Positions 16,403 to 37,538 of a stretch of 64,000 nt of DNA are shown one piece after another. The stretch spans positions 4,457-68,456 of the forward strand of contig JAAYBZ010000097.1 of assembly GCA_012744445.1 (NCBI GenBank), given 5' to 3'. The notes beneath the pieces are model-generated. The model was not told the DNA's origin, did no database searches, and saw nothing but the letters and a program-made list of their open reading frames with translations. Position numbers and translations under genes: made by a program. Source of the DNA: Myxococcales bacterium. Lineage in GTDB: Bacteria > Myxococcota_A > Polyangia > Polyangiales > Houyiibacteriaceae. How positions within the stretch are numbered: position 1 is the stretch's first letter; each line of letters begins with the position of its first letter.

Positions 16403-17395
16403 ATGTCCGAAGTCTTCCCCCGCACGCGCCTCCGCCGTCTCCGCCGCACGGATTTCGCACGCCGGCTCGTCCGTGAGTCGACGCTGACGGTGGACGATCT
16501 GATCTGGCCGGTCTTCGTCCGCGAAGGAGAGAACGCGCGCGAGGACGTCCCCTCCATGCCCGGCGTGAGCCGCCTGTCGATCGACCTCCTCGTCGAGGCC
16601 GCGGGCGAGGCCGCAGCGCTCGGCATCCCGGCCATCGCGCTCTTCCCGGTCGTCCCGCAGGAGAAGAAATCGCTCGGCGGAGAGGAGGCGTGGAACGAAG
16701 ACAACCTCGTCTCCCGGGCCGTGCGCGCGCTCAAGGCCGCGCATCCCTCGCTCGGCGTGATCTGCGACGTCGCGCTCGATCCCTACACGAGCCACGGCCA
16801 GGACGGCATCGTCCGCGACGGTGTGATCGTGAACGACGAGACGGTCGAGGCGCTCGTGAAGCAGGCGATCACGTGCGCGAGGGCGGGCTGCGACGTGGTC
16901 GCGCCCTCCGACATGATGGACGGCCGCATCGGCGCGATCCGCGACGCCTTCGAGCGCGAGGGCTGCTCCGACACGCTCATCATGAGCTACGCCGCGAAGT
17001 ACGCCTCGAGCTTCTACGGCCCGTTCCGTGACGCGGTGGGCTCCGCCGCCAACCTCGGCACGGCCGACAAGCGCACCTATCAGATGGACCCCGGCAACGG
17101 CGCGGAGGCGCTCCGCGAGGTGCGGCTCGATCTCGACGAGGGCGCCGACATGGTGATGGTGAAGCCCGGCCTCCCCTACCTCGACGTCGTCTACCGCGTG
17201 AAGTCGAGCTTCGGCGTGCCGACCTTCGCCTATCACGTGAGCGGCGAGTACGCGATGCTCAAGGCCGCGGCGCAGAACGGATGGCTCGACTACGAGAAGA
17301 CGCTCCTCGAGACGCTGCTCTCGTTCAAGCGCGCCGGCGCCGACGGCATCCTCACCTACGGCGCCGTGGAGGCCGCGAAGCTCCTCAGTCGATGA
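16403..17395 (+). CDS. hemB: porphobilinogen synthase (delta-aminolevulinic acid dehydratase)
   Basis: Evidence is '[31 protein letters not shown]' and the Schiff-base lysine context '[13 protein letters not shown]'. The metal site reads '[14 protein letters not shown]', which is aspartate-rich and suggests the Mg-type rather than the Cys-rich Zn-type. Confidence 0.9.
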
Positions 17396-18008
17396 GGAGG
17401 ATCTCCTCGAGCGTCTCCACCGTGAGCTCGTAACCGAGCGTCTCGTGCGTGAGGATCGCGCGCCTCGGCGCGATCCGTCGCGCGTCCCAGCGCTCGTAGC
17501 GCACGCGGGACTCGACGCTTCCGTCGGCGGAGAGGAAGGTGCGCTCGGTGATCCGTCCCTCGGGCCATCGCTCGATCACCTCGAGCCCAAAGGCCTCGCC
17601 GCGGCGCACGCCGTCCTCGTCGGGCACGCCTTCGACCCACGGGAAGAAGACCTTCTGCACGTCGGCGAGGATGCGCTCGGGTCGAAAGGGGAGCGCCCGA
17701 TCGGTGCGGTTCTCGACGTGGACCTCGAGGTCGGCGTCGAGCGTGATCACGAAGCCGGGCTGCCCCGTGGGCGAGAGCGCGACGATGCGGAGGGCGCCTT
17801 CGTGCTTCTGCACGACGGCGTCGAACTCGGTCTCACCCGTCGCCCATCGCGCCGTGACGTGTTGGCGGAGCACGAAGTCCGGCTCGGCCGCGTGGGGCGA
17901 GAGGAGCTCGGGCGGCGGGAGGTCGTCGAAGAACGACTCCGGCGTGGGCTGCTGGCGCGCGCCGCACGCGGCGCAGAGGAGGGCGACGAGGGCGAGGGCG
18001 CGGTTCAC
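17385..18008 (-). CDS. DUF3261-type lipoprotein (ApeN-like) of aryl-polyene cluster
   Basis: The GTG start at 18008 overlaps the stop of the upstream exporter gene (GTGA). It has a signal peptide plus lipobox '[10 protein letters not shown]|G'. It is the last gene of the APE-like operon, in the same position as apeN. Confidence 0.7.
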
Positions 18009-35715: not shown

Positions 35716-35726
35716 GCCCCTCCCCC

Positions 35727-37538
35727 TCAGCCCCCGACCGCGGCCGTCTCGGCCTCGACCTCGACGAGCAACGACGACAGCGCCGAGCGCACGCGCTCTT
35801 TGCTCGTCACGTAGTTCGGCTGGCCCACGCAGCGATCCACGTCCCGCGCGATCGGGCTCAGCGTCCGCCGGCGCGTGAGGCCCACGGTGTCGTGCTGATC
35901 CAACCGATCCGCCGGGATGCGGAGGTCGAACTTCGCCGCCTGCGTCCGCTCCATGAACTCGTCGAAGAGCTCGTCGCCGATCTCGAACGCCGTCCTGAGC
36001 AGGAGCTCGCCCACCACCTCTTCGGCCTCGACGAGGCGCGACTGCATGTACGCGAGCGTCTCCTCGGGCGACCAGCGGTTCTGGAGCGCGAGGTGCGCCT
36101 CCACGAGCACCGAGGGGAACTTGGGCATCGGCGCGAAGCCGCCCTTGGAGAGCTCGGGCTTCAGCGTCGCCCACGTGGCGAGGAAGGTCTGCACGTAGTT
36201 CGAGAGCTCGACGAAGCGGCGCCCTACCGTCATCACCTCCTCGAGCTTCGGCCCGGTGAGCCGATAGAGCTCCTGGAGGAAATACTGGCAGGGGTACGAC
36301 CAGTACGAGAAGTTGTCCCAGTAGATCTTCGCGAGCATCGCGCGGCCGTGCCCGTAGATGGGCGCCGCCTGACGATAGATGTCCACGCTCCCGTTCACGA
36401 AGGAGCGGTACTGCAGGCTCAGGTCCCGCGCGCGCTGCTCGAGCTCCTCGCGGCTAGCACCTGCGTAGTCCGCACGGATGAGCTCCTCCGTGAACGAGTT
36501 GGCGTAGGCGATGAAGTCCGAGCCCGGGCTGTAGAGCGGATCGACGAACGCCCCCGCCTCACCGACGAGCGCCCAGCGATCCCCCGACCAGCCACGCGCG
36601 ATGTTGTGGCTGTACGAGCGGAGGCACTTGAAGTCCATCACCTCGAACTTCTTGATCTGCTCGGCGAGGTGTGGCTCGTGCTTCTCGAAGAACGCCATCA
36701 CGCGGTCGAGCGTGCGCACCTCCTCGAAGCCGTGCGGGGGATCGTGCACCACGAGGCCGATGCTCGTATTGCCGGTCGAGAGCGGGATGATCCACGCCCA
36801 ATAGCCCACACCCATGAGGTGGTTGGTCGAGCGCCAGCGATCCCCGGCCCACGACGCCTCGTGCCACACCTTCGCCTCGGGCGGCGCGAACTGCGTGATG
36901 TCGACGCGCCCACGGACGCGGAACCAACCCGAGTGCGCGTTGTGCCCGGAGCCGCGCGTGAGCTTCTGCTCGCGCCGGACGAGCGCCGCGCGCCCGCTCG
37001 CGTCGACGAGCCAGCGGCTCTCGATCCACGCCTCGTCGCCCGACGCACCACGGATGCGCGTGCGATGCGCCTCTCCACCCTTGCCGAGCACGATCTCCTC
37101 GACGCTCACCCCTTCGAGGAGCGTGACGCCGTCCTCTTCTTCGATCATCGCGCGGAGATCGTTCTCGAACCGACCGCGATCGAGCTGATAGGAGGGAACG
37201 ATGGGCTCCTGCGCCGCGCCGATCTCCATCCGCTCGTGGATCGGGAGGTGACCGCCACCGGGATAGAACCGAAGGCCGTGCTTGAAGATCTGGTTCTTCT
37301 TCAAGTACTCGACGAGCCCGAGGCTCTCGAAATACTGTGAACCGAGCTCGACGCTCGATTCACCCACCTTGTGGGCCGCGTCCGGCAACGGGCGAGCGAT
37401 CTTCTCCGCGACGAGCACACGGAGGTTCGGGTGCTTCCGGCGGAGCTGGCGGGCCAGCGTGAGGCCCGCGAGGCCGCCTCCGCAGATGACCACGTCGAAG
37501 GACTGCTTGTCGAACGGCGCGACGGAATCGAGGTTCAT
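35727..37538 (-). CDS. flavin-dependent halogenase-like FAD enzyme (long form, 603 aa)
   Basis: Evidence is the FAD motif 'DVVICGGGLAGLTLA', 'AAHKVGESSVELG', the WxWxIP motif 'GYWAWIIPL', and 'FVDPLYSPG'. A roughly 200-aa C-terminal extension has no motif I can recognise. Confidence 0.75.
   Translation of the reverse strand: MNLDSVAPFDKQSFDVVICGGGLAGLTLARQLRRKHPNLRVLVAEKIARPLPDAAHKVGESSVELGSQYFESLGLVEYLKKNQIFKHGLRFYPGGGHLPIHERMEIGAAQEPIVPSYQLDRGRFENDLRAMIEEEDGVTLLEGVSVEEIVLGKGGEAHRTRIRGASGDEAWIESRWLVDASGRAALVRREQKLTRGSGHNAHSGWFRVRGRVDITQFAPPEAKVWHEASWAGDRWRSTNHLMGVGYWAWIIPLSTGNTSIGLVVHDPPHGFEEVRTLDRVMAFFEKHEPHLAEQIKKFEVMDFKCLRSYSHNIARGWSGDRWALVGEAGAFVDPLYSPGSDFIAYANSFTEELIRADYAGASREELEQRARDLSLQYRSFVNGSVDIYRQAAPIYGHGRAMLAKIYWDNFSYWSYPCQYFLQELYRLTGPKLEEVMTVGRRFVELSNYVQTFLATWATLKPELSKGGFAPMPKFPSVLVEAHLALQNRWSPEETLAYMQSRLVEAEEVVGELLLRTAFEIGDELFDEFMERTQAAKFDLRIPADRLDQHDTVGLTRRRTLSPIARDVDRCVGQPNYVTSKERVRSALSSLLVEVEAETAAVGG

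Follow-up and report, generated by a model that had tools for sequence, protein, structure and literature searches.

The window analysed here is a 64,000-nucleotide (64-kb) stretch of an uncultured Myxococcales bacterium (GenBank assembly GCA_012744445.1, contig JAAYBZ010000097.1, positions 4,457 to 68,456). It carries 19 genes at 17385-37538 (~20 kb; Table 1) that we read, with a probability of about three in four, as an aryl-polyene (APE) lipid cluster of the subfamily containing an MIO-dependent ammonia-lyase, working by the pathway proposed below. APE clusters are considered to be the most widely distributed of the families of biosynthetic gene clusters in bacteria, and few of their products are known; to our knowledge none is known from Myxococcota. 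At the ~70% G+C content of the window, mechanical lists of open reading frames (ORFs) are full of spurious frames. Genes were selected by G+C content at the third codon position (GC3, 0.75-0.96), and each was then confirmed by Pfam and NCBIfam domain content.

The 19 genes form a minus-strand operon of 11 genes, mostly with 4-nt overlaps between neighbours, a divergent plus-strand operon of six genes (28188-33260), and a minus-strand pair consisting of the flavin-dependent halogenase-like gene Hal2 followed by a COMT-like O-methyltransferase (OMT) gene. A first-pass annotation of the same DNA had described this arrangement, and it was borne out, in order and coordinates, for all 19 genes by GC3, Pfam and NCBIfam. 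The collinearity with apeD to apeN and the correspondence to apeQ, apeO, apeC and apeP that it had proposed were likewise recovered in protein-by-protein BLASTP comparisons of the window genes with the ape cluster of E. coli CFT073 (L084), in which the order apeD to apeN is the same. Between them the genes supply an ApeO-type ketosynthase (KS) with an ApeC-type chain-length factor (CLF), an ApeQ ketoreductase (KR) with ApeP and ApeI dehydratases, ApeH with ApeE, and the anchoring and export set ApeD, J, K, G, L, M and N, which are the marks of an APE cluster.

Of 600 confirmed genome hits, the top 80 were retrieved as loci, and in these the same architecture was found again. What sets the cluster apart is the Hal2-OMT pair. 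Hal2 followed by OMT, at 47-60% identity, lies immediately beside the operon headed by the lysophospholipid acyltransferase (LPLAT) gene in 13 other species-level loci (L001, L003-L010, L014, L034, L059 and L068), and the cluster is therefore a conserved, recurrent variant and no one-off hybrid. In these 13 loci, all from metagenome-assembled genomes (MAGs) of uncultured Myxococcota, Bradymonadia or 'Deltaproteobacteria', the pair is divergent from the LPLAT-ACP-ligase operon (ACP, acyl carrier protein) and the OMT orthologues downstream of Hal2 are 47-56% identical; relative to them, the pair in the window is relocated. The full complement of lyase, the second halogenase-like gene (Hal1), Hal2 and OMT occurs in four of them (L003, L007, L008 and L014), at 38-77% protein identity. 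We found no characterised product or cluster with this gene complement in the literature searched.

Table 1. Features of the cluster region in window coordinates; matches to Ape proteins are to those of E. coli CFT073
Feature	Position	Strand	Evidence and remarks
DUF3261 protein (ApeN-like, LolB-like)	17385..18008	-	Pfam PF11659 E=5.6e-15; start overlaps MMPL stop
MMPL/RND exporter (ApeM-like)	18005..20389	-	Pfam MMPL; ApeM 26% over 813 aa, E=3e-40
LolA-like periplasmic carrier (ApeL-like)	20386..21027	-	Pfam LolA_3 E=2e-16; ApeL 31%
4HBT-type thioesterase (ApeK-like)	20999..21412	-	Pfam 4HBT_2; ApeK 31%
MIO-dependent aromatic amino-acid ammonia-lyase	21409..22971	-	Pfam Lyase_aromatic, 521 bits, E=3e-156
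LpxL-type acyltransferase	22968..23909	-	Pfam Lip_A_acyltrans; ApeJ residues 250-552 at 32%, E=1e-48
Family-2 glycosyltransferase (GT2)	23906..24658	-	Pfam Glycos_transf_2; ApeJ residues 3-230 at 41%, E=1e-52
Adenylating enzyme fused to ApeI-type hotdog dehydratase (ApeH+ApeI)	24655..26361	-	AMP-binding, AMP-binding_C
Small integral membrane protein (ApeG-like)	26358..26948	-	ApeG 44%, E=1.5e-28; IspA/VC0807-family matches
Acyl carrier protein (ApeE-like)	27012..27287	-	PP-binding; NF006617 95 bits (cut-off 70); ApeE 52%, ApeF 33%
Lysophospholipid acyltransferase, LPLAT (ApeD-like)	27244..28098	-	Pfam Acyltransferase E=2e-17; ApeD 28%
CBS-pair protein, head of polyketide synthase operon	28188..28811	+	Pfam CBS, two stretches, E=9e-17
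3-ketoacyl-ACP reductase (ApeQ-like, FabG-type KR)	28859..29644	+	NF004200 357 bits, over cut-off; ApeQ 53%
Hal1, flavin-dependent halogenase-like, 414 aa	29641..30885	+	Pfam Trp_halogenase; directly upstream of KS
Ketosynthase, KS (ApeO-like)	30882..32051	+	NF006618 431 bits (cut-off 407); ApeO 43%, ApeR 31%
Chain-length-factor-like KS partner, CLF (ApeC-like)	32048..32836	+	Pfam Ketoacyl-synt_2 E=1.4e-23; ApeC E=6e-6
Hotdog dehydratase, DH (ApeP-like)	32829..33260	+	Pfam PF22817 ApeP-like; ApeP 30%
Array, 7 copies of 19-nt motif ACGGACCCAGGTTGAGTTC	33281..33622		Motif scan
HUH (HIH) tyrosine-transposase-like ORF, 303 aa	33671..34582	+	NF047646 REP-associated tyrosine transposase 35 bits, under cut-off 80; GC3 0.70
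SAM-dependent O-methyltransferase, OMT (COMT-like)	34618..35715	-	Pfam Methyltransf_2 (143 bits) + Dimerisation; GC3 0.75
Three 27-nt tandem units, ACGGACCCAGGTTGAGTTC motif inverted	35611..35691		In frame in long OMT reading frame: KPTQVEPAE x3
Hal2, flavin-dependent halogenase-like, 603 aa	35727..37538	-	Pfam Trp_halogenase, residues 109-381

Assembly, anchoring and export genes

Thirteen of the Ape proteins of E. coli CFT073 and Xenorhabdus doucetiae (ApeC, D, E, G, H, I, J, K, L, M, O, P and Q) have homologues in the window, as does the DUF3261 protein, and the predicted logic is shared with those systems: an aryl acid on an ACP, polyene assembly by KS-CLF, lipid anchoring, and export of the Lol/RND type. 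In comparison with E. coli, ApeH and ApeI are fused in the window, ApeJ is split, the polyketide synthase (PKS) genes stand in a divergent operon, and an MIO lyase, two halogenase-like enzymes, a COMT-like OMT and a CBS protein are added. The DUF3261 protein, assigned to ApeN by Pfam only, is a probable lipoprotein. The start codon of LPLAT is uncertain, as alternative starts exist. The CBS-pair protein has no homologue in any of 84 related loci and is possibly a regulatory, window-specific addition.

The first-pass annotation had listed the LpxL-type acyltransferase, which begins with a GTG codon (23909) overlapping the stop of GT2, as a separate item. Because GT2 matches residues 3-230 of ApeJ and the acyltransferase matches residues 250-552, the two genes are, by homology, the N- and C-terminal halves of a split ApeJ, and the acyltransferase is no extra enzyme. 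In the adenylating enzyme (the ligase), BLASTP matches residues 44-444 to ApeH of E. coli CFT073 (27% over 422 aa) and residues 479-538 to ApeI (32%, E=2.6e-5); a weak FabA-like match (20 bits) is also present, and a database protein 100% identical to the window ligase (P0001) carries PF22818 (ApeI-like). The fusion had been reported correctly, and only its supposed rarity did not hold: a homologue search returned 1287 proteins at E<=1e-10, and in all 120 listed homologue clusters (47-71% identity) the AMP-binding and ApeI-like PF22818 domains are fused; the fusion also occurs on the megaplasmid of Ralstonia solanacearum and in RPE67, a Burkholderia.

A housekeeping fatty acid synthase (FAS) origin of the KS, KR and DH, a check that the first-pass annotation had proposed for the KS and DH genes, is rejected because the KS passes NF006618 and fails the NCBIfam FabF model (214 bits, under its cut-off of 494), and the DH matches the ApeP-like family. 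No counterparts of ApeR, ApeF, ApeB or ApeA were found in the window, where tblastn gave only the ApeO-like KS and one ACP match; with E. coli ApeE, ApeF, ApeO and ApeR as queries there was no second ACP in the window, and the ApeO-like KS was its sole full KS. The single ACP and the lack of ApeR had been noted before, correctly for the window, and had been called unusual; there is precedent for both, since single-ACP APE clusters are on record for xanthomonadin and E. coli continues to produce APE lipid when apeR is deleted (PMC8253772).

Among the closest known systems are the lyase-containing proteobacterial APE clusters of the V. fischeri ES114 type, with those of Ralstonia and Pseudoalteromonas. 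In Ralstonia solanacearum the order is CLF, LPLAT, ACP, ACP, membrane protein, fused ligase, GT/AT, 'histidine ammonia-lyase', thioesterase, LolA, MMPL, KS, DH, FabG, KS, KS. A Pseudoalteromonas chromid has an 'aromatic amino acid ammonia-lyase' in the same place, a split GT2 and acyltransferase, and a Hal1-like flavin adenine dinucleotide (FAD) protein. Unlike the window, clusters of this type have a second ACP and either two or three KS genes, and they lack the 603-aa Hal2 and the COMT-like OMT; protein identities to them are only 26-54%. APE clusters have been reported from myxobacteria by genome mining (PMC6226438, PMC11821767).

Ammonia-lyase, halogenase-like enzymes and methyltransferase

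The lyase carries the MIO triad Ala-Ser-Gly (GSVGASGDLTPLS found). At the position that separates histidine ammonia-lyase (HAL) from phenylalanine and tyrosine ammonia-lyases (PAL and TAL) it has Gln, its HNQD aligning with HNQD of PAL and ANQD of the Rhodobacter TAL (RsTAL), where HAL has Glu (AQED). Identity as HAL was rejected on this residue, and an amino-acid-derived starter is therefore plausible, in agreement with the first-pass annotation. The selectivity motif is R-M-H-G, with the His aligned with His93 of the tyrosine aminomutase SgTAM, which is the top match in the PDB; Ala stands at the position of SgTAM Glu71. The Ala-Ser-Gly triad, the Gln and the His are kept in 38 cluster-linked orthologues. 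The substrate is likely tyrosine and the enzyme a predicted TAL.

The earlier view of the lyase as an unusual insertion did not survive comparison. The gene is present in 32 of the 40 related loci whose flanks cover its position; it lies between the GT/acyltransferase and thioesterase genes in Ralstonia and Pseudoalteromonas (L085, L092), as in the window; and its product, 52% identical to the lyase of the Ralstonia cluster, is among the best-conserved proteins of the subfamily. One published genome analysis reports ammonia-lyase genes in the APE cluster of V. fischeri ES114 ('subfamily 2'; PMC5851621). The flexirubin systems of Chitinophaga pinensis and Flavobacterium johnsoniae also derive their aryl head from tyrosine, and their TAL, FlxA, combines a HAL-like motif 1 with a TAL/PAL-like motif 2, as does the window lyase; FlxA is 1000-fold selective for tyrosine, the route through TAL and coumarate has been shown experimentally, and chlorinated, methylated, tyrosine-derived flexirubins are known (PMC3992019). 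In contrast to the window, flexirubin biosynthesis relies on a stand-alone 4-coumarate-CoA ligase, its polyene forms an ester with the dialkylresorcinol that DarAB produces, and methylation is on carbon. No FabH-like or DarA-like domain was found in the scanned ORFs of the 64-kb window, and none of the FabH-like (DarB-type) kind in its well-supported ORFs, in line with the earlier remark that no darA or darB was seen. The window proteins do not reach the cut-offs of the flexirubin NCBIfam equivalogs (score/cut-off: the TAL FlxA 298/700, the SDR FlxB 305/340, LolA2 40/125 and the methyltransferase FlxJ 18/560).

Xanthomonadin and arcuflavin clusters (Xanthomonas, Azoarcus, Lysobacter and the Burkholderia RPE67 type) resemble the window in having a single ACP and a methyltransferase. 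The class includes brominated, methoxylated aryl polyenes (PMC3949708), and in xanthomonadin-type clusters a halogenase gene lies beside the KS-CLF pair (PMC3691225), an arrangement repeated in the window, where the Hal1 stop overlaps the KS start. These clusters differ in lacking an MIO lyase and in drawing their starter, 3- or 4-hydroxybenzoate, from the chorismatase XanB2; the well-supported ORFs of the window contain no chorismate lyase or chorismatase domain, so that the earlier statement that it holds no UbiC- or XanB2-like gene stands.

Both halogenase-like enzymes carry the WxWxIP and GxGxxG motifs and the conserved catalytic-Lys position, as the first-pass annotation had said of the first of these; a halogenase by the KS-CLF genes was already known (PMC3691225). 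In Hal1 the motifs are GAGPAG, K70 in LFKRGAQF, and GWAWVIPL, and they are kept in 16 homologues; in Hal2 they are GGGLAG, the Lys in IFKHGLRF, and YWAWIIPL, kept in 25 homologues. The nearest solved structures to Hal1 are the halogenases 8zop, CndH, Mpy16, CmlS, PltA and Bmp2, and down to E=1e-8 all of its PDB relatives are halogenases except for one unnamed flavoprotein, 3nix; those nearest to Hal2 are 3nix, CndH, Bmp2 and PltA. Because these relatives (CndH, Mpy16, PltA, Bmp2 and CmlS) are mostly carrier-protein-dependent halogenases, the predicted target of Hal1 and Hal2 is the aryl head while it is bound to the ACP, and possibly also the chain. In the OMT the motifs for SAM binding (VDVGGGRG) and for the catalytic His (HVLHNWSD) are intact, and the enzyme is predicted to O-methylate the phenol; its start is uncertain, at GTG 35715 or TTG 35589. 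The C-terminal third of Hal2 (~220 aa, window 35727-36400) has no Pfam annotation.

With the lyase, the ligase fusion, the acyltransferase, the single ACP and the KS-side halogenase each having precedent, the framing of the locus as an unusual hybrid is not supported, and neither the lyase nor the ligase-dehydratase fusion nor the LpxL-like acyltransferase should be taken as out of the ordinary. The locus instead defines a recurrent, uncharacterised tailoring variant with a lyase, two halogenase-type enzymes and an O-methyltransferase.

Proposed pathway and competing explanations

The product would likely be a tyrosine- or p-coumarate-primed aryl-polyene lipid, probably halogenated and O-methylated. 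We infer the steps by homology to the ape work in Xenorhabdus and E. coli, from which the functions of the Ape proteins and the structure of the APE lipid are taken (10.1101/2020.12.19.423268, PMC8253772), and to flexirubin. The lyase would deaminate L-tyrosine to p-coumarate, the choice of tyrosine over phenylalanine following from motifs only; the ApeH-type domain of the fusion would activate the aryl acid and load it onto the single ApeE-type ACP; and the ApeO/ApeC KS-CLF, the ApeQ KR and the ApeP and ApeI dehydratases would extend it iteratively with malonyl units to a conjugated polyene. An ApeR-type initiation KS might not be needed because a coumaroyl starter already has the first vinyl unit, a speculative link that is weakened by Ralstonia, which has both the lyase and extra KS genes. 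Hal1 and Hal2 may then halogenate the ACP-bound aryl head, possibly also the chain, and the OMT may methylate the phenol. The ApeK thioesterase, the ApeD LPLAT and the split ApeJ would join the chromophore to its anchor, a glycosylated glycerophospholipid, and the ApeG-, ApeM-, ApeL- and ApeN-type proteins would move the lipid to the outer membrane, where pigments of this kind guard against oxidative and light damage.

Several points weigh against this reading. No product is known for the clade, and all close relatives are MAGs. The top NCBIfam match of the ligase, TIGR02372 (4-coumarate-CoA ligase), scores 117 bits, far under the cut-off of 335, and the lyase lies under all NCBIfam equivalog cut-offs (BagA 429/1000, FlxA 298/700, HutH 417/539). 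The residue before the selectivity His, the first switch position, is Met in the window and Met, Phe, Tyr or Leu across the orthologues, so that sequence cannot decide between tyrosine and phenylalanine. The cluster encodes no flavin reductase, and Hal1-type genes also occur in proteobacterial APE clusters, the products of which are not known as halogenated. The OMT has an aberrant codon composition, an adjoining mobile-element-like ORF and an uncertain start.

Some of these points serve an explanation that we consider unlikely, in which an aryl-polyene lipid is made and the 'halogenases' are hydroxylases or other flavoenzymes; Hal2 might, for example, hydroxylate the ring and the OMT methylate the hydroxyl thus formed, giving a non-halogenated methoxy-hydroxy head. 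The lack of a flavin reductase gene would fit, as would the occurrence of Hal1-type FAD proteins in proteobacterial APE-type clusters, from which we know of no report of halogenated products. A hydroxylase-OMT operon is moreover a common pairing, and there are sub-threshold NCBIfam matches to the flavin monooxygenases QhpG, LodB and GoxB. Against it, both proteins retain WxWxIP, a motif specific to halogenases, and the Lys, conserved across the 16 Hal1 and 25 Hal2 homologues noted above, and the significant PDB relatives of Hal1 down to E=1e-8 are, save 3nix, halogenases; the pigment class does include halogenated members, namely xanthomonadins with bromine and flexirubins with chlorine (PMC3949708, PMC3992019).

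The starter might instead be hydroxybenzoate from a UbiC- or XanB2-type enzyme elsewhere in the genome, of which our view is limited to 64 kb, with the MIO enzyme acting as an aminomutase, as a phenylalanine lyase or as the supplier of another moiety. ApeH of Xenorhabdus and ArcT of Azoarcus do activate hydroxybenzoates (PMC8253772, PMC3949708), the top PDB match of the lyase is an aminomutase, and the lyase-bearing Ralstonia and Pseudoalteromonas clusters retain extra KS genes. We hold this to be quite unlikely, given that the lyase is translationally coupled within the operon, that its orthologues recur in Ralstonia and in most of the 40 related loci covering its position, that Ala replaces Glu71 of SgTAM, that no chorismate-utilising enzyme is encoded in the window, and that flexirubin offers a precedent for a TAL making the starter (PMC3992019). 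Improbable in our judgement is that Hal2 and OMT merely adjoin the cluster and serve another pathway, the APE cluster proper ending at the DH gene (33260). The pair is set apart from the PKS operon by the transposase-like ORF and repeat arrays and is located, on the same strand, downstream of a gene for a Mur ligase. Hal2 also has relatives at 39-42% identity elsewhere: a Janthinobacterium lividum plasmid (L086) carries one beside a type I PKS, and a Gloeothece plasmid (L087) carries one beside hpaB, with no APE cluster. Mere adjacency is opposed by the 13 species-level loci in which the pair stands beside the LPLAT-ACP-ligase operon, and by more distant Hal2 homologues (32-39% identity) in further APE-type loci.

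Within the preferred reading of an APE lipid cluster with a lyase-derived starter, a more specific proposal is tentative, and we would put the odds somewhat against it: the clade-specific Hal2-OMT module, Hal1 and the lyase might together yield, in uncultured Myxococcota, a previously undescribed tyrosine-derived pigment lipid, doubly halogenated (at a ring and/or vinyl position) and with a methoxy-aryl head, Hal2 belonging to a halogenase lineage, 520-600 aa in length and uncharacterised, that would act on aryl polyenes bound to the ACP. Separately, the OMT might have been re-acquired as a cassette with the HUH-transposase-like gene between the inverted motif arrays; if true, this would be a case in which a biosynthetic cluster exchanged a tailoring gene. 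Three questions could be put to the locus: whether p-coumarate is the starter in APE clusters that have a lyase, whether the FAD enzymes of the cluster do halogenate, and at which place on the molecule. In practice it is useful as a lead for genome mining; it will not surprise a specialist and leaves the knowledge of how this pigment class is made unchanged.

Repeat arrays, mobile-element-like sequence and neighbouring genes

The interval between DH and OMT holds a HUH-transposase-like ORF and two inverted motif arrays, which the first-pass annotation had overlooked. The 19-nt motif has 10 close copies in the two arrays and 11 matches window-wide, vs 0.34 expected, and is absent from the 84 related loci. 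Classical hairpin REP elements were rejected: as single-stranded DNA the array at 33270-33640 is less structured than its shuffles (z=+2.1). The array at 33281-33622 is probably outside the pathway. The transposase-like ORF has no Pfam or PDB match; its identification comes from the sub-threshold NCBIfam match and the HIH motif, and it is probably a mobile-element gene outside the pathway.

The inverted arrays bracket the transposase-like ORF and the OMT, the GC3 of which (0.70 and 0.75) compares with 0.82-0.96 in every other cluster gene. In the 13 related loci the GC3 values of OMT, Hal2 and ligase agree within 0.07 (<=0.05 in 12 of the 13). The low value in the window, set against these neighbour-like values, suggests that the OMT may have been recently re-acquired or replaced.

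Three contigs came out of a metagenome scan in which the core of the motif (14 nt) had to occur in paired copies. One of them, L089 (SMEH01000749.1), is 99.6% identical to window 29715-35691 and is a strain variant; at 1591-4355 it has an IS21-type element inside the transposase-like ORF, with a 522-aa IstA-like transposase and an IstB-like ATPase, and it has one 54-nt repeat unit fewer than the window. On this comparison, the site of the transposase-like ORF and array is a mobile-element insertion hotspot with repeat copy-number polymorphism. In the two other contigs, one an unrelated one of 70% GC and the other of 36% GC, the core lies in short tandem repeats (L088 13740-13829 and L090 1100-1158), a sharing that may be coincidence, tandem repeats being numerous in the collection.

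Scans of 17.0-37.0 kb returned 0 sigma-70 promoters, and 1 intrinsic-terminator-like site vs 5.6 expected. The cluster is flanked by housekeeping genes, HemB on one side and a Mur ligase, DUF1844, BamA-like and TamB on the other. Three genes lie upstream of hemB, at 9276-16322: one for a 482-aa protein with a weak resemblance to radical-SAM proteins, one for a fusion of a BadF/BcrA-type activase and DUF2229 (1206 aa), and one whose 620-aa product has no Pfam family. This uncharacterised set is probably unrelated to the aryl-polyene cluster. Among the related loci, a contig labelled 'MAG: Klebsiella pneumoniae' (L032, CAMDBH010000075.1) encodes a ligase 47-48% identical to the window protein amid myxobacterial-type neighbours, and is probably mis-binned.

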